The notes below the pieces were generated by a model. The model made no database searches. It saw nothing but the letters and a program-made list of their open reading frames with translations, and was not told where the DNA came from. From an uncultured bacterium (GTDB lineage Bacteria; Omnitrophota; Gorgyraeia; Ghiorseimicrobiales; Ghiorseimicrobiaceae), in the NCBI GenBank assembly GCA_913009335.1, contig CAJVXN010000002.1:11981-75980 (forward strand): a DNA stretch of 64,000 nt, written 5' to 3'. The position numbers and the translations under genes are program-made. Positions within the stretch are counted from its first letter, which is position 1; every line of letters begins with the position of its first letter. This document shows positions 46,429 through 55,785 of the stretch, piece after piece.

Positions 46429-46707
46429 ATGAAAAATTTTAAACTATTAATTGTTCTTTTGGCAATGGTTATGATTATTGCAAATATGGCTTTCGCAGGT
46501 AATACCCAAACTGTTACTGTTTCGTGTACCATACCTTTGGTTCCGGGCTTAAATGTGCCTATTACTGAAGAAACTACGGTTGTTCCTGATGAGGCTGTTA
46601 GTGAACTCTATGAGTACACAATGATAGTCGCCGAACAAGAACCGGAGATAATGCAGGAAGAAACTGTATCTGAAGATTCAACGTTGTATACGTTTTGTTT
46701 GAAGTAG
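46429..46707 (+). CDS. small secreted protein, unknown function
   Basis: Signal peptide MKNFKLLIVLLAMVMIIANMAFA; GGAGGTGA RBS. Confidence 0.5.
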   Translation: MKNFKLLIVLLAMVMIIANMAFAGNTQTVTVSCTIPLVPGLNVPITEETTVVPDEAVSELYEYTMIVAEQEPEIMQEETVSEDSTLYTFCLK

Positions 46708-46733: not shown

Positions 46734-46770
46734 TAAAAAAATTGCGCGGTTTTTAAACCGCGCTTTTTTT
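46734..46770. terminator. bidirectional rho-independent terminator (A-run, GCGCGG...CCGCGC stem, T-run)
   Basis: Read directly. Lies between the convergent genes 46429-46707 (+) and 46797-49628 (-). Confidence 0.7.
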
Positions 46771-46796: not shown

Positions 46797-49628
46797 CTAC
46801 TCTTTTATTTCTTTTAAAGGAATATTGTATTTAAATGTCATTCCTTCGAAAAGGGTTAGTTCTTTTTTGATTGAGACTTCCGGTAGGTAATGGACGGGTA
46901 TGCTGTTTATGTCTAATGTAACAGTATGCTCACCAGGAGAAGCTCTTCTAAAGAAATATCTTCCTGCGCCGTCTGTTTTTACGCTGGCGCCATTTTCCAA
47001 ACTTAATACAACGTCTCTTAATCCTGTATCTCCGTCTGAAAATCTTCCGTTTTGGTCTTTATCAATAAATACTATACCGGAAACTTCAGAGTTTGCCACA
47101 ATACCAAAATCAATATGCGCGATATGATGATGCGCAAGCAGTGTTGTTTGTATGGCAGGTACGGTTAAGACGTATCCTTTTGGCAGGGTCGTAGCATCAA
47201 TTCTAACATCTACTTCTTTTGCTTTTACCTTCTTAAATTTATAGTAACCTAAAATGTCTGTAGTTTCCTTTTTATTTCCTATGTAAACATCTGCCCCTTC
47301 AACAGGAGGCTCATCATTTTGCCGTAGGCCGTCAGAATTGTAATCTTTATAAACTAATCCTTCTATTGCACCTATGGTTTTCCAACTTGCTCCGGTATCC
47401 CATACATAGCGCATGCCCGCGCGGAAATCAAGCTCAATACGGTCATTCACAGCGTTATTATCCGCCCATACATTTCTTAGTCTGCCGGATATATAGGCCT
47501 CTTTTCCGGATTCAGGGCGATAATTTAATTCGGTGTATCCTTCGAGATAATCCTCCCCAGCTAAGAAGCTTAATACGGACTCAGAATTTTCTTCATCGCG
47601 ATAATTAAGACGAACACTTCCTGAAAGCTTCTCATTGATTTGCCCCGTCCAGTCAAGTCCTGTCTCCCATGCTTCAGGGCGAGTTAGGCCGCTGGTTTGT
47701 TTTTCTCGGGTCCAGGCGACTTCTTTGTTTATGAAATAATATAAATCAGATATAAGGTTAAGTCTTAAACCGGAGACTAATTTATGGCTTCTGTAGTCAA
47801 GGGATGGCGCGCTAAAGTTCGAGATATCATTATATTGATAACTAAAAAATGAACTTAGTCTTTCAAAGCTTGCAAATGTGTGAGTAAGTGTTGTCCAGGC
47901 GCTATGGCTGCGAAGCTCCGAGACTCTTCCTAGTTCATTCTGTAGAGAATAATCAAGACCCAGCGTAGTTAGTCTATCCATCCTGTATGTTGTGTCGATG
48001 TTCAGAGCTTGATTCCATCTATCCTTTTTTTCTTTACTGGGAAATAGCCTGTCGCGGAATACATCAAGTTGCATAGAGCTGTGTAATTTAGGAGTAAATT
48101 GGTAATCGATATTAAATAGCCCTCCTAATTCTCCTACGCGTGAGCCAAAACCTACAATCGTTAAGAATTCTTTATCTATGTCGCGTAATTCTGTTGAGAA
48201 ATTCAAATTAGGACGGCTGTATTGATATCGTAATAGCTGTGAGAAAAAATTGGTATCATGGGCGATTTCATAAGAGAATCCCCATTTATCAAAATTATAA
48301 TCCATTATAAAATCATATGTAAATTCCGGAAGATTTATTTCTCTATCTCTTCCCCATCCGCGGAAAATAGAACCACTGTATGTTTGTTTGTTATCTGGCT
48401 GGTAAACAAGCTTAGTACCGCCTAAGAATTTACTTTCAAGGGTTGCCAGACCCGGAGATAAATTGCCAAACCGTCCACCTCCTTCTCTGCCCCAGAAAAC
48501 CGTATAGTCTATTTTTTTATCAAAAGCCGGAGATTCAAGCATTACACCTCTAAGAGACGATGAGCCAAAGGAAAGATTTTCAACTAGTGGCTGGTAATCA
48601 AAACCTCTGATTGAAAAATCGCGGAAGTTGCGCCATCTTCCTTCGGTTAGCCCCATGGTTAGGTGTGTTAAGTCGGTATTTGTCTGTAATGATCTTATGG
48701 AAAAGGAAGAATCGAAATCTCCGTAAGGAGTGCCTCCTGTTATTCCCATGGAATGACTGTAGGCGTAAGTTTTCCTGTCTAAATCGTCTTTATCCAGGCT
48801 TGCGCCTTCTTCAAAAGATGACCAGTCAACAGAATAACGTATTTTAAAATTACGCTCTTTTTCTTTGGCAATAAGACTTTCTTCCGGGCTAAGCAGGCCC
48901 TCGGGTTTTTCAGGAGTTCCTAAAACACTTATTGTCCAGCGTCCGTTATCATCCCAGAGATGAATATAAGTATAGCCAAGCTGTTTAGCGGTTACCGAGT
49001 ATTTACTAGGGCTGATTTTTTCAATAGCAACAATTGGGGGCTGGGTTACAAGATGTCTTCTAAAATTCATCCCTTCAATTACGATGCTTTTTCCTATTTC
49101 AATCGTAATAGGTTGAATGACATTTTCAAATTCATCATCCAGGGTTAATATGCCGGATATTTTAGGAGTCTTTATTTTTTCTTCTTGCGTGATAAATTCT
49201 TGCGGGGTGATTTTTGCGGGGAATAGTTTTGCTTCGAAATCATCCAGATAAGTTGACACATCGTAATATCTCTTCTCCGGGATATCACGGATTACCTTGC
49301 CTGTTTGAAGTTTATCTAGATATCTCTCAACAGTGGTTTCTCTATCGTGCAAGATGTAGTTTTTAGATATTAACGGCTCATCTATTTCTTTACCTTCAAT
49401 AAGACGAATATATTCCCTGGCAAATTGATTATTGGGTTCTATTATTAAAGCTTTTTTGAATTCATGCAACGCGTCGGCGTATCTGCCGCGCTGGTAATAT
49501 GTAAGGCCCAGTTCGTTTAAGAATTGAGGCATCATCGCATAATTACCCCCTGCGTATACAGGCGCAAAGCCGGAACCTATAAATGTAAAAGCCAAAAATA
49601 ATATGCAAATTTTCTTAAAAATAGACAT
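46797..49628 (-). CDS. large secreted protein with an N-terminal TPR-like region, a beta-rich central domain and C-terminal Cna-B/SdrD-B-like repeats; possible outer-membrane/usher-like component of the adjacent pilus-like cluster
   Basis: Signal peptide. DGDTGLRDVVLSL..DGAGRYFF and SDGLRQNDEPPVEGADVYI repeats. Function uncertain. Confidence 0.35.
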   Translation of the reverse strand: MSIFKKICILFLAFTFIGSGFAPVYAGGNYAMMPQFLNELGLTYYQRGRYADALHEFKKALIIEPNNQFAREYIRLIEGKEIDEPLISKNYILHDRETTVERYLDKLQTGKVIRDIPEKRYYDVSTYLDDFEAKLFPAKITPQEFITQEEKIKTPKISGILTLDDEFENVIQPITIEIGKSIVIEGMNFRRHLVTQPPIVAIEKISPSKYSVTAKQLGYTYIHLWDDNGRWTISVLGTPEKPEGLLSPEESLIAKEKERNFKIRYSVDWSSFEEGASLDKDDLDRKTYAYSHSMGITGGTPYGDFDSSFSIRSLQTNTDLTHLTMGLTEGRWRNFRDFSIRGFDYQPLVENLSFGSSSLRGVMLESPAFDKKIDYTVFWGREGGGRFGNLSPGLATLESKFLGGTKLVYQPDNKQTYSGSIFRGWGRDREINLPEFTYDFIMDYNFDKWGFSYEIAHDTNFFSQLLRYQYSRPNLNFSTELRDIDKEFLTIVGFGSRVGELGGLFNIDYQFTPKLHSSMQLDVFRDRLFPSKEKKDRWNQALNIDTTYRMDRLTTLGLDYSLQNELGRVSELRSHSAWTTLTHTFASFERLSSFFSYQYNDISNFSAPSLDYRSHKLVSGLRLNLISDLYYFINKEVAWTREKQTSGLTRPEAWETGLDWTGQINEKLSGSVRLNYRDEENSESVLSFLAGEDYLEGYTELNYRPESGKEAYISGRLRNVWADNNAVNDRIELDFRAGMRYVWDTGASWKTIGAIEGLVYKDYNSDGLRQNDEPPVEGADVYIGNKKETTDILGYYKFKKVKAKEVDVRIDATTLPKGYVLTVPAIQTTLLAHHHIAHIDFGIVANSEVSGIVFIDKDQNGRFSDGDTGLRDVVLSLENGASVKTDGAGRYFFRRASPGEHTVTLDINSIPVHYLPEVSIKKELTLFEGMTFKYNIPLKEIKE

Positions 49629-49638
49629 ATCTATTTTA

Positions 49639-50487
49639 CTAACGCAGGTCTCCTATTTGTTTTACTTCGCCAAGCGCGTCTACCTCTATTGTTGCCTCAC
49701 GGACTACAATATCATTGGTGTCATGGGTTAGGGTGATAATGATGTCATATATTCCCGTTGGCAGCTTGTCTTTCCATGTGCTTGTTAATTTTGCCGTATC
49801 ATTCGGAAACGTATATATATTATTAAATAATCCGCGAGCATATACTCTACCCCCTCTATCGATGATTGAATATGTTGCTTTCTCGATTATCTGAGATATG
49901 TTTCCTGTATTTTTAAAATCCAGTGATATATCAAGAGATGAGTCTTCGTAATTTTTAGTAAATGAGAGATTAGAAAGGATTGCCGATCTGTCAATAAGTC
50001 CCTTTGGATGAATATAGAAAAGTGTTCCTATTCGCGTGGCTACCATTACGTTTACGCCTTCTTCGCCGACTGCGACGGGTTGGGTTTCAAAAAACATTAT
50101 GGCATAATGCCCTTCTTTTATATCCTCGGGCATTGTTATAGCATATGAGAGAACCTGAGAAGAAAAAGGCGGCATAATAAATTCAGAAGGGGCAAATGTA
50201 ATCCATGAGGCGCAGGAATATTTTGATGTACCTGCGGGCATAAATTTTTTATCGCCGTTTCCCGGGGCCACATAAATCCAGTCTTCAAGGTAGATTTTAA
50301 CAACTAATGGGTTTTCGGATGGATTTTCTATACGTATTTGTCCGGTTTCTGTTTTACCGGGGGTAATAATTGGTTTTAGTTTCATTTTGTCCACGCGGAC
50401 AAAACCATAAGAAAGTGTTGTGAAACTTAAAATAAGGGATAGGGATATTATGGCAGGTAAAAGCAGGAACATGCTTTTTAGTTTCAA
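49639..50487 (-). CDS. periplasmic pilus-chaperone-like protein (PapD-like N-domain pattern)
   Basis: Signal peptide. KPIITPGKTETGQIRIENPSENPLVVKIYLEDW resembles the PapD N-terminal R..F.......L.I.N.....P.L.Q.W pattern. Confidence 0.35.
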   Translation of the reverse strand: MKLKSMFLLLPAIISLSLILSFTTLSYGFVRVDKMKLKPIITPGKTETGQIRIENPSENPLVVKIYLEDWIYVAPGNGDKKFMPAGTSKYSCASWITFAPSEFIMPPFSSQVLSYAITMPEDIKEGHYAIMFFETQPVAVGEEGVNVMVATRIGTLFYIHPKGLIDRSAILSNLSFTKNYEDSSLDISLDFKNTGNISQIIEKATYSIIDRGGRVYARGLFNNIYTFPNDTAKLTSTWKDKLPTGIYDIIITLTHDTNDIVVREATIEVDALGEVKQIGDLR

Positions 50488-50649
50488 AATCGCCTCCTCT
50501 TATTGCTGGTGAGAGTACATAATTTATCCTTTATAGATAGGGGGCCATTTTACTACTACCCCCTACTTATAAAGGTTACTCTTTTATGTTAACTTTTACT
50601 CTGTAACTTGCTTAATTACTATTAGTTATAGATTATCACATTTGTTGAA

Positions 50650-51324
50650 TTAAAGCAATACTAAAGTAAAAGTAACAGTGCCAGAATAGGAGTCAGCTTT
50701 TTGATCCAACGGTATAGGTTCGTGTCCTGCGAAAGGAGCCCCGCCGCCGCTAGCATAAGGCGGAATACCGATATATGTCTGTATGGTTCTTAGATTAGCA
50801 GATGTTCCGCTGCTATAGAGCACTTTTCCTGTTGATTGAAGTGGCCCCCCAGTTCCTAATGACGCGTCAGCCGGCATTGCTTGCCCGCCGTTATCCGCTG
50901 GATTATAACCAGGTGTAATACTTACTCCTTTAGGGAGCACGCCACCGACCGTCCCTGATAATCCTGAACAGGTTGAGGTAATTTGGTATGGTGTACCAAA
51001 TGTCCAACCAGTCAAAAATACGGTATAGTAGTATGGACTTGCAAACCATAGACCCGCATCTGAACCATCAGTTAGGGTATGTGTTAGTGTACCGAATGTG
51101 ATGTTCTTTGCACCGGTATCTACCCATACATCATCAGTGTAATCAGTTGTTGTGCCCTGATCATCTACCTCGAATACAGTACTCATTATCAGTTCGTTTG
51201 TGCCTGATATCGTTGCGGATACCGTAACACTGTCAGTCAGCTGCGCGTGTGCAGCTACACCTGTAAAAAGAACCATAGCCGATAGAGCTAGCATGCTGAT
51301 AAGTACTTTTTTCATGTGTTTCAC
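50650..51324 (-). CDS. spore-coat-U / Csu-type (sigma-fimbrial) pilin-like secreted protein
   Basis: Signal peptide. N-terminal SVTVSATISG, internal ITFGTL and a Cys, and a C-terminal YSGTVTFTLVLL like the SCPU YxDTVTVTV. Confidence 0.4.
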   Translation of the reverse strand: MKHMKKVLISMLALSAMVLFTGVAAHAQLTDSVTVSATISGTNELIMSTVFEVDDQGTTTDYTDDVWVDTGAKNITFGTLTHTLTDGSDAGLWFASPYYYTVFLTGWTFGTPYQITSTCSGLSGTVGGVLPKGVSITPGYNPADNGGQAMPADASLGTGGPLQSTGKVLYSSGTSANLRTIQTYIGIPPYASGGGAPFAGHEPIPLDQKADSYSGTVTFTLVLL

Positions 51325-51420
51325 CTCCTTTTGTTTTGTTGTTGTTATTGTTAATTTCCCAATACGCGTTTTGTTACTAAAAACTTTTTAATAGGTTTTA
51401 CTTTCTATGTTTTCAAAAAA

Positions 51421-52809
51421 CTAAATTTCCGATAGAGAATAGAGTATTTGTGTTGAATAATTACCTCTTTTTACGTCGCGAGGAACTTGCAGTTCATATA
51501 CAATTCCAAATTGCGTCGAAGTACCGTATTTATCGGATGTAAATAATATTGTATCGCCTTTTTTTACGGGTGACTTTGTCAAAATTTTTAAGTCTCCTTT
51601 TGTATCAATACTTTCTGTATTTACGGTAAAATATTTATCTTTTATGGTATCACCGGCTTTATTAGCCAAAAGGGATATTACATTTTGGGTTATTTGATAC
51701 GGCTTGCCTACATTTGTTTTGACCTCAATTAGAACTTCGCTTATCTGCGGAGGGTTTTTTGGGTCTAATTCAAGAAAGTTAATCCCTCCTGTTTCAGAGG
51801 TCGCGTTTATCTGGAATATTTTTTCATTTTCAACTTCCAGATTAAAGATATCCAGTAATCCGGAATTTAAAATTCCCGTACCCCGGAGAATATACTTTAA
51901 TGTGGTTTTATATCTACCAGGTCTCTGCCATGATAGATCTCCCAGGCGATAGGTGATAATAAAATTATCAGGATCGCCGCTTATATTTGAGGTGTAGATA
52001 ACTTGTTCTCGTTTGGATAATGTAGTTGACTGAGCGGCTGCTATCCCTCTTTTATTCCCTCGCACGTTAAAATTTACGCTTTCAAGAGCTAATTTTTTAC
52101 CTTCAAGAGAAGCCAACGGTTGAGGAATAACCTGAATGATTTTAAATTGCTGTCCCAAACCGCCGATTATATCAAAGCCAACTTCGAAGCTATGTTTTGT
52201 TTTATCCGCGTGTTTAAGTGATATTGTTTTTGAATTATCCTGTGTTTCTATGATGATTGCGTTTTCAACAGAGACTTCGGCAAATACATTTAGAACGACT
52301 GTATGCGAATTTTCGGATGAATCAATTGGCTCTAGGGTGTAGCTTATTCTTCCTCGGTACGATCCTGCGGGAACTTCAGAAGTAAGGAGTCGGTAAACTA
52401 GCTGGAATGAATCAGGGGTACCTTGAGTATTAGAGGTATATAAAATAGACCTGGAAAGCGATACAGGTATTTCGTTGGTAACTGAAAGAGTGCCGTATTT
52501 ATTTGTGCCGCGGATGGCATATACCCGTAAGCTGGTATATGGAACTTCGTAGCCGGTTACAGTACTTAATGGATTTAAGACTTGCTGAATTATACGATAT
52601 TGTTTACTTATATTTGAAGTGACTCGCAGCGTAACTTCTTTATTTACAACACCATTAGCTTGAGCTGAAATATTGCCAAAGCGGATATTCTGTCCTCCTT
52701 CAAACGGAGTTACAGAAAGGCTAAATGCTGCAAAAGCAACATTACCAGTTAGCGTGAGTATTGAAAAAATCGCTAGGAAAATAACTGAAATTTTTGGTAG
52801 GTTTTTCAT
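51421..52809 (-). CDS. secreted protein with three ~140-aa internal repeats (candidate tip/adhesin subunit)
   Basis: Signal peptide. Repeats anchored on QYRIIQQV / QFKIIQVI / PYQITQNV ... GRY..I.Y.L. Confidence 0.35.
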   Translation of the reverse strand: MKNLPKISVIFLAIFSILTLTGNVAFAAFSLSVTPFEGGQNIRFGNISAQANGVVNKEVTLRVTSNISKQYRIIQQVLNPLSTVTGYEVPYTSLRVYAIRGTNKYGTLSVTNEIPVSLSRSILYTSNTQGTPDSFQLVYRLLTSEVPAGSYRGRISYTLEPIDSSENSHTVVLNVFAEVSVENAIIIETQDNSKTISLKHADKTKHSFEVGFDIIGGLGQQFKIIQVIPQPLASLEGKKLALESVNFNVRGNKRGIAAAQSTTLSKREQVIYTSNISGDPDNFIITYRLGDLSWQRPGRYKTTLKYILRGTGILNSGLLDIFNLEVENEKIFQINATSETGGINFLELDPKNPPQISEVLIEVKTNVGKPYQITQNVISLLANKAGDTIKDKYFTVNTESIDTKGDLKILTKSPVKKGDTILFTSDKYGTSTQFGIVYELQVPRDVKRGNYSTQILYSLSEI

Positions 52810-53141
52810 TGGGATACTCGCCTATTATTATAATCCTGCGGACAGGATTTGTCAATGCATTTGTACCCGTGTTTGGTACAATGGCGCATCCCAATTGAAT
52901 TGTTCATTTGGAACCCGTGGCACGCCGATTCCTAATGGCGTTATAAGTATAACATATAATATAGCAATGTCAAGGAAGGGCCGATATTGAAGGAAAGCGC
53001 TTTCATAGAATATCTAACTTGTTTATTAACAACAGGTTTCGACTGTAATTAAATATAAAATAGCATCCTCTGTCCTATTTTTTTTCGAATCACAAAAAAA
53101 CTTGCTTTTTTTGTTAAAAAACGTATAATAATGCATAAGTT

Positions 53142-53600
53142 ATGGAAGATTTAAATAATACCACCCCAACTGATTCTATGCCTGTTTCTGGTGCTCCGCG
53201 AAAAAATAACCTTCGTCCGGTAAAGTTTATTATTGTTTTTGTAGTAGGGATTTTAGCGGCAAAAGGAATATTTGTTATTCTGGATAAAAAGGTAATAAAA
53301 CAAAAAACTACACAGACTAAACCAATGTCTCAGGTAGTTACAAAAATAACTCGATCTTCCGAAAGAAATAACGCATCTATAAAAAAGGATGTCTCGCCTG
53401 TCTCAGTTCTCCTGCCTCCTTCTTTTCCGGAATTAACACTAAACGGTATTGCCGCAAGCGGTGAAAGCGGATGGGCGATTATTAATGGTAGAGTTGTTAA
53501 GCCCGGAGATAAGATTAAGGATGCCAAAATCGTAGGAATAACTGAGGAAAAAGTTTATCTTGATTTTAAAGACGAGAGTTTTACGCTTACCTTCGAGTGA
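53142..53600 (+). CDS. membrane-anchored protein with a C-terminal PilP/GspC-like beta domain (tentative)
   Basis: One TM helix. LNGIAASGESGWAIINGRVVKPGDKI..VGITEEKVYL pattern. Promoter TTGCTT, 16 nt, TATAAT at 53102-53129. Confidence 0.3.
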   Translation: MEDLNNTTPTDSMPVSGAPRKNNLRPVKFIIVFVVGILAAKGIFVILDKKVIKQKTTQTKPMSQVVTKITRSSERNNASIKKDVSPVSVLLPPSFPELTLNGIAASGESGWAIINGRVVKPGDKIKDAKIVGITEEKVYLDFKDESFTLTFE

Positions 53601-53685: not shown

Positions 53686-53970
53686 TCATTTCAATAGATC
53701 TAATCCCTGCAAATAATCTTCATATTCCAAGGGCGCAGCAACACCTATTTTTCCTAAAAAATCTATTGCCGAACTCAAGGGTATTTTTAATTCACTAGCT
53801 AAAGATCCTAAAGAAATCTTCCCTTCTCTATACATACAAAGAAGATGAAATTCCCATCCCTCATTAATTAACTGACGTGCTGCCTGGGATTGATCTGCAT
53901 TATTTTCTTTTGCTAATTTCTTTATATGGCTTAATTCCTCTTGACCAAGTCGTACACTCAAAACACTCAT
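53686..53970 (-). CDS. UPF0175-like putative antitoxin
   Basis: 94 aa. Overlaps the upstream PIN gene by 4 nt. Confidence 0.4.
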   Translation of the reverse strand: MSVLSVRLGQEELSHIKKLAKENNADQSQAARQLINEGWEFHLLCMYREGKISLGSLASELKIPLSSAIDFLGKIGVAAPLEYEDYLQGLDLLK

Positions 53971-54470
53971 TTTTCTCCCATCCTCCTTTCTATTTTACTC
54001 GTTGCATCAAAAATTATTCTATCGTTGTACCTGCCTAATTGCTCCAGCCGCTCTAACTTTACCAAGGCAAGTTCTTTACTAATCCGCTTTTTATAAAACA
54101 CATCCAATAAAAAATGCACAGCTGTAACAAATTTAACTCCCAACACCTTACAGGCCTTGATTGCCTGGCCATCGTCTGTTGCTAATATCGCCTGCTTTTG
54201 CTGCGCTAATAATAATGCTGACGCTTCTCCTTCAGCAAGAACAAAATCATCCTGGAATTTTTTAAACAATGTCTGGTTTTTGACTTTCATCACTCCAATC
54301 TTGCCAGTATTAATAAGCTCGATAATAATCTTGGCATCAAGAAGCTCAGATTTACAAGTCGCTTCAGCCTTTACCTCTTTAGATATAAAGACTTCACGAG
54401 TGTGTACTATAGTTTTTAATATATCCAGCTTTGCCAATAAAATTAATGTCGAAGCATCAAATACGATCAT
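53967..54470 (-). CDS. PIN-domain protein (DUF3368/VapC-like putative toxin)
   Basis: MIVFDASTLILLAKLDIL N-terminal acidic PIN signature; conserved D...E...D spacing. Confidence 0.5.
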   Translation of the reverse strand: MIVFDASTLILLAKLDILKTIVHTREVFISKEVKAEATCKSELLDAKIIIELINTGKIGVMKVKNQTLFKKFQDDFVLAEGEASALLLAQQKQAILATDDGQAIKACKVLGVKFVTAVHFLLDVFYKKRISKELALVKLERLEQLGRYNDRIIFDATSKIERRMGEK

Positions 54471-54666: not shown

Positions 54667-55785
54667 TTATTCTCTAAGGCTTTCAACAGATTTTTGGATT
54701 ATTTTTAAAGGGATGCCCTCTTTTATGATAACCCGGCCTATTGCCTTAGGAAGGACAAATCTATTTTTGCCATGAATAAATTTTTTATCAAAGGATTGGG
54801 CCTTGATAATACTATTTAATTTTAAACCTTTTATTTTTGATGGCAGGCCGATATTCGCAAGAATATCTGTAATACGTTTTTCTTCTTTTTGATTTGTAAA
54901 TATTTTAAGTTTTCCTGCGATTCTTTGCGCAGCAAGCATTCCTAAAGCTATTGCTTCTCCGTGAGTGTATGCTTTAAACCTCCCTGCTGTCTCTATGGCA
55001 TGTCCGATAGTATGGCCATAATTTAGAATAGTGCGTATCCCTTTTTTTTCTTTTTCATCAAGCGATACTATCTTAGCTTTAATTGCTGCACATTTATTAA
55101 TTATATGTTCAAGATTTTGATTGTTAAGATTGAGTATATTTGAGTAATTTTTCTCAATATATGAAAATAATAATTTATCTTTAATTATGCCGTACTTAAC
55201 CGCCTCTGCCAGTCCGGCCCTTAGCTGTTTTTTAGGCAGGCTCTTAAGAAGCGATATATCACATAAAACAAGGCTTGGCTGGTAAAAAGCTCCTACAAGA
55301 TTTTTTCCGCAGTCAAGGTCAATTGCCACCTTGCCTCCTATGCTGGAGTCAATTTGCCCAAGAAGTGTAGTAGGTATTTGTATATAAGGTATCCCGCGTT
55401 TATACACGCTTGCGATGAAACCGGATAAATCCCCGATTACCCCTCCCCCCAGGGCAATGATAAATACGCGTTTTCCCTTTGCATATTTAGATACCTTATC
55501 AATGAGCTTAAAAGCTATTCTTTGTGATTTGCTTTTTTCGGAATCAGGTACGCATTCAAAGCGATATGATATGCCGCCTTTTTTTAGGCTATTTTCTAAT
55601 TTTGCACCGGCTATTTTCTTAATTTTGGGGTTTGTGATAATTAACGCGTCGCGCCCAATATTAAGTTTCTTAATACAGCCCGGTAAATTTTTTAAAATCC
55701 TGTTGCCTATTAGAATCGAGTAGTTTCTTTTTCCTAAATTCAGTTTTATTTTTTTCACCCAGCCCTTCCTTCTTAATTTTACCAC
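54667..55785 (-). CDS. aroB: 3-dehydroquinate synthase
   Basis: GGGVIGDLSGFIAS and HGEAIA metal-binding motifs. Confidence 0.85.
   Translation of the reverse strand: MVKLRRKGWVKKIKLNLGKRNYSILIGNRILKNLPGCIKKLNIGRDALIITNPKIKKIAGAKLENSLKKGGISYRFECVPDSEKSKSQRIAFKLIDKVSKYAKGKRVFIIALGGGVIGDLSGFIASVYKRGIPYIQIPTTLLGQIDSSIGGKVAIDLDCGKNLVGAFYQPSLVLCDISLLKSLPKKQLRAGLAEAVKYGIIKDKLLFSYIEKNYSNILNLNNQNLEHIINKCAAIKAKIVSLDEKEKKGIRTILNYGHTIGHAIETAGRFKAYTHGEAIALGMLAAQRIAGKLKIFTNQKEEKRITDILANIGLPSKIKGLKLNSIIKAQSFDKKFIHGKNRFVLPKAIGRVIIKEGIPLKIIQKSVESLRE

Follow-up and report, generated by a model that had tools for sequence, protein, structure and literature searches.

A run of four genes for secreted proteins in an uncultured member of the Omnitrophota raises the question of whether these bacteria assemble a surface fibre in the manner of chaperone-usher pili and, if so, of which class. 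A first-pass annotation of the window (the whole stretch of 64 kb that was analysed) had read the genes, here P1 to P4, as encoding a tip protein, a pilin, a chaperone and an outer-membrane protein in the usher position, and had assigned them to the sigma (Csu/spore-coat-U) type. Fold, architecture, motifs and synteny support the general scheme, with confident AlphaFold models of P3 and P4 as the principal evidence; the class assignment is not borne out. Together with a fifth conserved component, S92, that had escaped notice, the genes form a cluster that is found across Omnitrophota, its components having diverged too far for standard annotation to recognise, and that most likely builds a surface fibre in chaperone-usher style. 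The features of the locus are the following.

46429–46707, plus strand: S92, secreted protein of 92 aa, convergent with P4
46744–46763, both strands: bidirectional intrinsic terminator (GCGCGGTTT-loop-AAACCGCGC; each strand has a T-run)
46797–49628, minus strand: P4, 943 aa
49639–50487, minus strand: P3, 282 aa
50528–50575, minus strand: stable RNA hairpin in the 162-nt P2–P3 spacer
50650–51324 as listed (224 aa), or 50650–51315 with the probable start, minus strand: P2
51421–52809, minus strand: P1, 462 aa
52827–52855, minus strand: candidate sigma-70-type promoter, TTGACA-17-TATAAT, 12/12 matches
52946–52973, minus strand: second promoter candidate, 11/12 matches, extended TG

All four minus-strand ORFs were confirmed. 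They form one operon, running from the consensus promoter, which lies 18 nt before the start codon of P1, to the terminator between P4 and S92, whose 3' ends converge; both promoter candidates are consensus matches only. As had been claimed, P1, P2, P3 and P4 each begin with a putative signal peptide (basic n-region, hydrophobic core, AxA-type cleavage site), and all four are predicted to be Sec-exported. The ORF of P2 stands, although not its length of 224 aa: because a perfect AGGAGGTG Shine-Dalgarno sequence lies 7 nt upstream of the ATG at 51315, this codon is probably the true start, giving a protein of 221 aa.

The order P1-P2-P3-P4, along with S92, recurs in the genomes of ∼100 Omnitrophota species with varying flanks. 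Synteny is kept in essentially all 48 related loci with enough flanking sequence, where the neighbouring genes differ, an arrangement far beyond chance, and S92 adjoins P4 in 67 of 76 loci. The plus-strand gene at 53142–53600, previously described as encoding a PilP/GspC-like neighbour, does match Pfam T2SSB (8e-7) and, weakly, T2SSC; only 3 of 81 loci, however, have it beside the cluster, and it is therefore not part of the system. The canonical SCPU, PapD_N and Usher models of Pfam gave no match to any cluster protein, and PapC_N/C and Fimbrial models were equally silent on these proteins and on the P3 and P2 families. Since PapD_N and Usher also miss the genuine Ecp system, which served as calibration, their silence is weak evidence against a chaperone-usher relationship. 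Counting against the fibre reading as well, the only pili reported in the Omnitrophota literature are type IVa and Tad.

The largest protein, P4, is organised as follows, according to an AlphaFold2 (AF2) model (pLDDT 82.7) and Pfam.

Start to residue 157: signal peptide, TPR hairpin (29–78) and disordered linker (80–157)
160–238: beta N-domain of the secretin/T2SS-T3SS_pil_N type, followed by a helix (248–258)
262–744: barrel of 26 strands, inserted plug absent
752–845 and 848–940: two C-terminal sandwiches, SdrD_B/CarboxypepD_reg-like

The TPR and beta-rich domains noted earlier are recognised by Pfam (TPR, 1e-7; T2SS-T3SS_pil_N, 1e-5; two SdrD_B/CarboxypepD_reg, 2e-14). A soluble or S-layer-like protein had been considered as the alternative; the model instead gives a transmembrane barrel with strictly alternating loops (9.6 aa vs 2.8 aa) and periplasmic turns all of ≤5 aa, so that P4 is predicted to be an outer-membrane barrel with both termini in the periplasm. 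The missing C-terminal aromatic residue, which had been held against P4, is irrelevant because the barrel is internal, as in ushers; its last strand ends MRYVW. The best PDB matches found by Foldseek were the full-length ushers FimD and PapC (E 2e-20 to 7e-13 over ∼760–805 columns), which outscore non-usher barrels (7e-9 or worse) by roughly 10 orders of magnitude. This strong score rests on a shared order of flanking domains, since the barrel alone scores little above unrelated barrels (FimD, 3ohn, 4e-10 vs Cir, 7e-9; only ∼1–2 orders of magnitude better). Sequence comparison gave no usher signal in P4 and no similarity to EcpC or CfaC. Usher barrels have 24 strands; P4 differs from every solved usher in having 26, in lacking the plug between strands 6 and 7 and in its additional TPR and secretin-type N-domain. 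Its C-terminal domains belong to the CarboxypepD_reg fold family, a family that Pfam also finds at the C-terminal end of EcpC, a bona fide usher. On the strength of the model, we propose that P4 is an usher-like assembly and secretion pore.

P3 had been suggested to resemble PapD, and its AF2 model (pLDDT 91.8, pTM 0.81) indeed shows, behind the signal peptide, the fold of a two-Ig-domain chaperone, with beta-sandwiches at 30–161 and 169–278; what does not follow is Pfam PapD_N, matched by 0/39 members of the family. The invariant R152 lies in the strand TRIGTLFYIHP, preceded by a loop modelled with low confidence (138–150), and the sequence shows no membrane anchor at its C-terminus. The top Foldseek match in the PDB is WxLIP (5e-12), a protein that is not part of a polymerising pilus, and this counts against the pilus reading. 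Nearly all of the best 50 structural neighbours are either WxLIP or pilus chaperones, the latter from every class: CfaA (TM 0.61–0.65) and, at E around 1e-9, FimC, Caf1M, CsuC, CupB2, EcpB and FaeE. Profile searches of PDB sequences led to EcpB (E 2.2e-5; by hhalign 81%, E 1.3e-5, 108 columns), and one homologue in JGI is auto-annotated as a PapD chaperone. P3 is proposed, from its modelled fold, to be a soluble periplasmic pilus chaperone with two Ig domains.

Profile self-comparison agrees with the earlier observation of three internal repeats in P1 (28–160, 184–308 and 331–459; E 1e-32 and 1e-22), which appear to be tandem homologous beta domains of pilin-like character. After domain 1, and again after domain 2, comes a linker whose hydrophobic residues alternate and which could serve as a G strand in cis, and domain 3 reaches the C-terminus directly after its GNYSTQILYSLSEI strand, the F-strand of the last domain, whose motif aligns with the C-terminus of CfaE. 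No extra N-terminal strand is found in the P1 sequence. P2 is homologous to domains 1 and 3 of P1 (profile comparison without signal peptides, E 1e-5). Both proteins, as well as the internal domains 1 and 2 of P1, finish with a GxYxxx[IV]x[YFI]xL strand like that of CfaB, CfaE, PapG and the Pam pilins. Within the P1 family (54–62 orthologues), 19 of 34 members match the NCBIfam model CPR_Pam_pilin_C (best 3e-7), in the last hairpin only and below the curated cutoff.

The pilin hallmarks formerly pointed out in P2 were confirmed, with conservation in 37 positional orthologues. They comprise the mature N-terminus SVTVSATIS (family consensus ItVsAtVP), which shares an I-x-V-x-A-x-V-x-P pattern with the N-terminal strand of CfaB, an internal FGTL motif with the invariant F77, and the C-terminal SYSGTVTFTLVLL strand that ends the protein (family pattern GxYxGxVTxTL). 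Profile searches with P2 yielded no match in Pfam or among PDB sequences. Its family (133 cluster representatives) is the least conserved of the system and the fastest-evolving, with a median identity of 24% vs 39–47% for the other components, and often has two copies per locus. We propose P2, which has a strong ribosome-binding site, as the major pilin, a role as polymer subunit that its hypervariability, frequent duplication and 3' hairpin also fit. That P1 and P2 adopt an incomplete Ig-like pilin fold completed by a donor strand is suggested by these motifs and by weak profile links with probabilities of ∼80% or lower.

S92 is a conserved component in its own right. Behind its signal peptide lies a TVTVSCTIPLVPGLNVP strand, for which the family consensus is VSCTIPaIPGvNaP; an acidic linker of low complexity then connects this to a C-terminal strand of family consensus vkTiYSR. 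Its resemblance to the P2 N-terminus is mostly due to the signal peptide; once this is removed, 19 columns remain (E 0.015).

Taken as a whole, the cluster is probably a divergent, Omnitrophota-specific chaperone-usher-like system for fibre assembly. The operon, from the promoter near 52855 to the terminator near 46750, would express the four exported proteins, and P3 would lend one of its strands to cover the groove left open in the truncated Ig-like domains of P1 and P2. Chaperone-subunit complexes may then be received by the N-domain and the two C-terminal sandwiches of P4, the fibre leaving through the 26-strand barrel. P1 would be the first to enter and would serve as tip or adhesin, solely accepting a donor strand, because it has three pilin-like domains, lacks an N-terminal donor strand and ends its last domain after the F strand. 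P2 would polymerise behind it by donor-strand exchange, its N-terminal strand filling the groove of the subunit before it, and S92 might, speculatively, end or anchor the fibre as a strand-only protein.

Three other explanations were weighed against this reading. The one suggested by the top match of P3 is a non-polymerising surface display, a diderm counterpart of the WxL/WxLIP complexes of Firmicutes (PMC10599100; PDB 9i1y, 9i25), in which P3 permanently completes P1 and P2 and P4 exports or anchors them, yielding a surface coat or adhesin layer instead of a fibre. Pfam WxLIP_PGBD weakly matches 12 of 39 P3 family members, and a hairpin strand of WxLIP is predicted to complete the sandwich of WxL, so that in both cases a two-domain protein would donate the strand. 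We nevertheless regard this explanation as unlikely: P3 has no C-terminal transmembrane helix, a WxL domain was found in neither P1 nor P2, a peptidoglycan-anchoring context is lacking, and the host is a diderm with an outer-membrane pore bearing usher-like periplasmic domains. The extra, CfaB-like N-terminal strand of P2 and its polymer-subunit traits also argue against it.

P4 might instead transport a solute or polymer, for example as a polysaccharide or nutrient channel, with P1–P3 as accessory binding proteins and no fibre. TonB-dependent receptors, Occ porins and the alginate exporter AlgE are indeed among its barrel matches (E around 1e-8), the plug is absent, and a TPR joined to a barrel recalls the polysaccharide exporters BcsC and PelB. 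Such a role seems very unlikely, given that ushers rank far above all these barrels, that the conserved module holds no TonB box or plug domain, glycosyltransferase or polysaccharide genes, and that the partner proteins bear chaperone and pilin signatures. Least probable of all is a diverged bona fide member of the archaic (sigma) Csu/CupE class. It would share the four-component logic and the general look of the pilin termini, the FGTL and GxYxGxVTxT motifs of P2 resembling those of SCPU-type pilins such as CsuA/B; DUF4402 weakly matches 3 of 37 P2 members (best 0.0023), and CsuC is among the structural matches of P3 (E 3e-9). SCPU, however, was not listed at E≤1 for P2 or any of the 37 members, the P2 profile retrieved no Csu or CupE pilin from PDB sequences, CsuC (TM 0.49) falls behind CfaA (0.65), Caf1M and FimC, and the sole sequence-level chaperone link, EcpB, lies outside the Csu class.

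The sequence-level links of the proposed fibre system are, in all, to EcpB, an alternate-class chaperone, to the terminal-strand motifs of CfaB and CfaE, and to the C-domain hairpin of Pam pilins. Alternate chaperone-usher fimbriae (class 5 CFA/I, CfaABCE; E. coli common pilus, EcpABCDE) have the same gene set of pilin, chaperone, usher and multidomain tip adhesin. CfaA is structurally the nearest chaperone, the P2 C-terminus mirrors aGxYsGvv of CfaB in addition to the N-terminal likeness, and EcpC and P4 share the type of C-terminal domain; whole-profile comparison gave no significant match to CfaA, CfaB, CfaC, CfaE, EcpA or EcpC. Unlike these fimbriae, the cluster has the order tip-pilin-chaperone-usher, the extra S92, three homologous domains in the tip protein, and a P4 without CooC_C or TcfC (plug) domains. 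Type 1 and P pili (FimC/FimD, PapD/PapC) have ushers with N-domain, barrel and two C-terminal sandwiches in the same order as P4, and chaperones matching the fold of P3, but sequence identity in structural alignments is 10–15%.

Pam pili of Candidate Phyla Radiation bacteria are built by donor-strand exchange from multidomain Ig-like pilins whose C-terminal Ig domain is truncated, and have PapD-like chaperones and a strand-bearing terminator protein (bioRxiv 10.64898/2026.03.03.709456). Each of these elements is proposed here too, and both host lineages are ultra-small, uncultured and probably host-dependent. Pam chaperones carry a membrane anchor, and an outer-membrane component is missing from that system (bioRxiv 10.64898/2026.03.03.709456), whereas P3 appears soluble and is accompanied by a large usher-like barrel.

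The hairpin between P2 and P3 has a ∼19 bp stem with a GGGGG/CCCCC core and no U-tract (z −2.6; equal folding in 1 of 200 shuffles); the P1–P2 spacer, folded for comparison, is unstructured. A hairpin is known 3' of the major pilin gene in pap-type operons. Among 49 loci, structures of at least −15 kcal/mol in strength follow P2 in 37 and P1 in 14, with mean folding z of −2.5 and −0.3, respectively. We propose that the hairpin may act as a stabiliser or attenuator of the transcript, raising pilin output relative to the assembly machinery.

The four consecutive minus-strand genes that the first-pass annotation had assigned to a sigma (Csu/spore-coat-U type) chaperone-usher pilus lie exactly at the coordinates it proposed. 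The signal peptides it had reported can likewise be read from the four protein sequences: all four have basic n-regions, hydrophobic cores and cleavage sites of the AxA type. We refer to the genes as P1–P4, with proposed roles as tip or adhesin, major pilin, chaperone and usher-like barrel, and list them here together with the neighbouring signals and a convergent gene for a small secreted protein (S92, 92 aa).

51421–52809, minus strand: P1, 462 aa
50650–51324 as listed, minus strand: P2, for which an internal ATG is the likelier start
50528–50575, minus strand: stable hairpin of ~19 bp in the P2–P3 spacer, with no U-tract (z −2.6)
49639–50487, minus strand: P3, 282 aa
46797–49628, minus strand: P4, 943 aa
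46744–46763, both strands: bidirectional GC-rich terminator between the P4 3′ end and the S92 gene
46429–46707, plus strand: S92, whose signal peptide is followed by the near-invariant strand VSCTIPaIPGvNaP, an acidic linker and, at the C-terminus, the strand vkTiYSR

P1–P4 form a single operon, with intergenic gaps of 96, 162 and 10 nt (P1–P2, P2–P3 and P3–P4, respectively). A 12/12 match to the sigma-70 consensus promoter is located at 52855–52827, 18 nt upstream of P1, and GAGGAGG precedes the TTG start of P3. For P2, the ATG at 51315 is the likeliest real start (221 aa), because a perfect AGGAGGTG ends 7 nt before it; the listed GTG start falls within the Shine-Dalgarno sequence of this ATG (window 51315–51324). 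In public gene calls (L001), P2 is 214 aa long and starts ten residues past the listed GTG, which removes the basic n-region from its signal peptide.

The search for homologues gave 84 proteins for P3 and at least 139 for P4, nearly all of them from metagenome bins of Candidatus Omnitrophota, and in a scan of one genome per species a P4 relative was present in 102 genomes. For P2, a word-indexed search retrieved no homologues, and exhaustive phmmer searching yielded 133 cluster representatives. The order P1 (~470 aa), P2 (~200–250 aa), P3 (~290 aa) and P4 (~940 aa) recurs across the 80 loci retrieved around P4 relatives, nearly all of them labelled Omnitrophota, and is kept in essentially all 48 loci with sufficient upstream flank, despite varying neighbours. 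Directly after P4, 67 of 76 loci carry a convergent gene of the S92 family. In public records these proteins are named hypothetical, 'SdrD B-like' or 'pilus assembly protein N-terminal domain-containing'. Several cluster-bearing bins (L007, L010, L012, L019, L026, L035, L039, L044 and others) carry the GenBank labels 'uncultured Planctomycetales', 'Margulisiibacteriota' or 'Deltaproteobacteria', which are probably taxonomic mislabels or reflect mis-binned contigs.

Gene content varies around this conserved core. Many loci have two P2 genes in tandem, five (L012, L021, L023, L053 and L073) possess an additional P2–P3 pair, that is, pilin plus chaperone, upstream of P1, and in three others (L009, L033 and L054) a second gene of ~900 aa, weakly P4-like (E 1e-8 to 1e-11), adjoins the cluster. 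These variants suggest modular expansion of the system.

The AlphaFold2 model of P3, built from a 39-sequence alignment, consists of two β-sandwich domains (residues 30–161 and 169–278; pLDDT 91.8, pTM 0.81); a loop of lower confidence at residues 138–150 is followed by the strand TRIGTLFYIHP, which contains the invariant R152. Foldseek searches of the PDB with this model returned two groups of proteins. One comprised the Gram-positive surface-complex proteins WxLIP (5e-12), and the other covered every class of pilus chaperone, namely CfaA, FimC, Caf1M, CsuC, CupB2, EcpB, SafB and FaeE (E 1e-10 to 1e-8), as well as YadV. TM-scores were 0.61–0.65 for CfaA, ~0.59 for Caf1M, ~0.55 for FimC and 0.49 for CsuC. 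The earlier suggestion of a chaperone, made from a PapD-like N-terminal pattern, is thus corroborated by the two-Ig-domain model and its matches to pilus chaperones. At the sequence level, the P3 family profile hit EcpB among 177,635 PDB sequences (hmmsearch, E 2.2e-5), and hhalign aligned P3 to Escherichia coli EcpB over 108 columns (81%, E 1.3e-5), in the N-domain only, with the RIGT-hydrophobic strand included. No significant hhalign match to CfaA was obtained, though CfaA gave the best chaperone TM-score. P3 possesses neither a C-terminal hydrophobic segment nor a membrane anchor, which fits a soluble periplasmic chaperone of a diderm cell. Model and sequence both point to P3 being a chaperone-type protein. 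An apparent similarity between the P2 and P3 profiles (93%) was an artefact and disappeared once the signal peptides were removed.

In the AlphaFold2 model of P4 (pLDDT 82.7) the following elements are distinguished.

Residues 29–78: TPR hairpin
Residues 80–157: disordered linker
Residues 160–238: β N-domain, matching Pfam T2SS-T3SS_pil_N
Between the N-domain and the strand region: short helix
Residues 262–744: 26 consecutive long strands
Residues 752–845 and 848–940: two C-terminal sandwiches, with SdrD_B and CarboxypepD_reg matches

Within the strand region long loops (mean 9.6 aa) strictly alternate with tight turns (mean 2.8 aa), a classic outer-membrane topology in the model, with both termini periplasmic. 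The first-pass annotation had hesitated over the non-aromatic C-terminus of P4. This is no objection: like that of ushers, the barrel occupies an internal part of the protein, and its final strand ends in MRYVW. The model, the loop/turn alternation and the top-ranking of FimD and PapC in structure searches agree with the earlier proposal of an outer-membrane protein, here predicted to carry a periplasmic N-domain and two C-terminal Ig-like domains. In ushers a plug domain interrupts the 24-strand barrel between strands 6 and 7, whereas the P4 barrel is predicted to have 26 strands and no inserted domain; since every periplasmic turn is of 5 aa or less, no plug could be inserted on that side. 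Among Pfam models, Usher (PF00577), PapC_N/C and TcfC did not match P4, hhalign comparisons with EcpC and CfaC revealed no similarity, and the P4 profile retrieved from the PDB sequences no usher, only TPR matches and a marginal one to a secretin N-domain. P4 therefore appears from its model to be usher-like, not a canonical usher.

P1 is built from three homologous domains in tandem (E 1e-32 and 1e-22), and the C-terminal two-thirds of P2 are homologous to domains 1 and 3 of P1 (82% and 81%, E ~1e-5, signal peptides removed). The final strand of each of these domains follows the pattern G-x-Y-x-x-x-[IV]-x-[YFI]-x-L. After domains 1 and 2 of P1 come linkers in which hydrophobic residues alternate (VVLNVFAEV and LLDIFNLEV), and these might act as closing strands in cis. 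In P2 and in domain 3 of P1 the chain stops directly after this F-strand-like motif; a subunit of this kind would need a strand from elsewhere. By the logic of their sequences, P1 and P2 would accordingly be classed as pilin-like. The NCBIfam model CPR_Pam_pilin_C was matched by 19 of 34 P1 orthologues, always below the cutoff (best 3e-7), and only at model positions ~96–145, the terminal hairpin; when ten P1 orthologues and the window P1 were scanned singly, the top score was 29 bits against a cutoff of 55, and the window protein itself gave E 0.12. The C-domain of Pam pilins is a donor-strand-accepting truncated Ig domain, as seen by cryo-EM of CPR pili (bioRxiv 10.64898/2026.03.03.709456). 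The terminal hairpin of P1 and P2 also aligns, not significantly, to the C-terminal strands of CfaE, CfaB and PapG.

P2 has one N-terminal strand more than a P1 domain, with the consensus ItVsAtVP. Its I-x-V-x-A-x-V-x-P pattern is shared with VEKNITVTASVDP, the donor strand at the N-terminus of CfaB, in an alignment with a local E of 0.003 that is not significant by itself. An N-terminal extension of this type is missing from P1, as would be expected of a tip subunit. P2 evolves fastest, with a median pairwise identity of 24% vs 39–47% for P1, P3 and P4. The hairpin downstream of it recurs in related loci, after P2 in 37 of 49 and after P1 in 14 of 49 (mean z −2.5 vs −0.3). Variability, duplication and the downstream hairpin would all fit P2 as a major, surface-exposed and highly expressed subunit. 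Profiles of P1 and P2 gave no significant match to PDB sequences, and comparison of the family profiles with EcpA, EcpC, CfaA, CfaB, CfaC and CfaE by hhalign yielded no significant whole-domain match.

Standard family models gave little guidance. Among the matches listed, SCPU, PapD_N, Usher, Fimbrial or related models of Pfam and NCBIfam appeared neither for the window proteins nor for the P1, P2 and P3 families, from each of which 34–39 members were scanned singly; PapD_N and PapD_C were absent at E≤1 from P3 and 39 members of its family. This silence is weaker evidence than it appears because the genuine E. coli Ecp system escapes the canonical models too: EcpB matches only EcpB_C in Pfam, so that PapD_N and PapD_C miss it, and EcpC matches CooC_C, TcfC and CarboxypepD_reg but not Usher.

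A chaperone-usher-like pathway is the best-supported reading of P1–P4, with the folds of P1 and P2 judged from sequence and those of P3 and P4 from models. Membership of the sigma/Csu class, as originally put forward, is not supported. SCPU (PF05229) was found neither in P2 at E≤1 nor among the 25 families listed for 37 P2 orthologues, the P2 profile retrieved no Csu or CupE pilin from the PDB, and CsuC ranks below CfaA, Caf1M and FimC as a structural match of P3, the sequence link of which is to EcpB only. Nearest by sequence and motif is the alternate class (EcpB; CfaA, CfaB and CfaE), but the CooC_C/TcfC domains present in the usher EcpC were not found in P4. In the Pam system of CPR bacteria the chaperones are membrane-anchored and there is no outer-membrane component, whereas here P3 has no such anchor and the P4 barrel is present.

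Two further explanations were considered. The cluster might be a non-polymerising display system of the WxLIP type, as the fold of P3 is similar and P3 gives WxLIP_PGBD matches, albeit below cutoff; WxLIP systems, however, combine a DUF916/DUF3324 protein bearing a C-terminal transmembrane helix with WxL partners, whereas P3 has no such helix and no WxL domain was detected in P1 or P2. Alternatively, P4 might belong to a solute or polymer transporter, with the other proteins as accessories. In Foldseek searches full-length FimD and PapC came first (E 2e-20 to 7e-13, ~760–805 aligned columns), followed from 7e-9 by other classes of barrel (TonB-dependent receptors, Occ porins and AlgE). The isolated FimD barrel reached only 4e-10, so that the margin of FimD and PapC stems from the shared order of flanking domains (N-domain, barrel, two sandwiches) and not from the barrel. 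We regard the system as chaperone-usher-like in operation and as falling outside the classical, archaic, alternate, Pam and WxLIP groups.

In such a chaperone-usher-like pathway the subunits would be exported by Sec, and P3 would cap P1 and P2 by strand complementation. The chaperone–subunit complexes would then dock on the periplasmic domains of P4, P1 presumably being incorporated first, as the tip; P2 would polymerise by strand exchange and the fibre would exit through the P4 barrel. Any role of S92 is likewise conjectural. The protein belongs to no Pfam or NCBIfam family, and its likeness to the P2 N-terminus (96%) is mostly due to the signal peptide; after trimming, 19 columns remain (E 0.015), a motif-level lead only. 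S92 was also considered as a lipoprotein, which was rejected since the conserved Cys lies ~10 residues past a canonical AxA site and its −3 position is not lipobox-like. By analogy with PamR of the Pam model, one may speculate that S92 is a strand-only terminator or anchor.

Most characterised chaperone-usher pili come from Proteobacteria. For Omnitrophota, a phylum of uncultured and mainly ultra-small bacteria that probably depend on hosts, the literature accessible to search mentions no pili other than type IVa and Tad. Two phylum-wide genome papers name only the type IVa, Tad and type II secretion systems and never use the word 'usher', and a full-text literature search combining Omnitrophota and usher returned nothing relevant. 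A conserved, unannotated chaperone-usher-like operon would thus provide these bacteria with a candidate attachment organelle. It would widen the known design range of ushers (26 strands, no inserted plug, TPR and secretin-type N-terminal modules) and help to link the classical pathway with the recently found strand-donation systems Pam (CPR) and WxLIP (Firmicutes). The five protein families, of ~100 or more members each, are open to family models, which would end their annotation as 'hypothetical' or 'SdrD B-like'. A bolder and rather unlikely possibility is that the operon represents more than a diverged usher system, namely a distinct, phylum-wide class of donor-strand-exchange fibres, with a plug-less 26-strand platform that is TPR-tethered and gated by the secretin-type N-domain or by a partner, and with S92 as the strand-only protein ending or anchoring the fibre; this class would form a bridge between the classical proteobacterial chaperone-usher pili and two monoderm systems that lack an usher, Pam and WxLIP. 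If so, the fibre could be the organelle by which ultra-small Omnitrophota attach to their hosts.

Several neighbouring genes were set aside. Proteins of ~110, ~96 and ~1080 aa flank the cluster in 26–40 loci (e.g. L016 6388–6717, 13210–13500 and 13701–16967), often beside lepA-lepB-pgsA-plsY. They have no signal peptides or Pfam matches and are missing from the window, where gatCAB flanks the cluster instead; they were rejected as parts of the system and are taken as an ancestral neighbourhood. The plus-strand gene at 53142–53600, noted earlier beside the cluster as PilP/GspC-like, encodes a membrane-anchored protein (152 aa) with Pfam matches to T2SSB (8e-7, a narrow pass of the gathering score) and, weakly, T2SSC. 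Since just 3 of 81 loci have it beside the cluster, it was rejected as a component and is probably unrelated. Between the cluster and aroB (3-dehydroquinate synthase, 54667–55785), two small overlapping minus-strand genes (53686–54470), encoding a 94-aa protein with DUF6290 (E 4e-6) and a 167-aa protein without a Pfam match, display a toxin-antitoxin-like arrangement.
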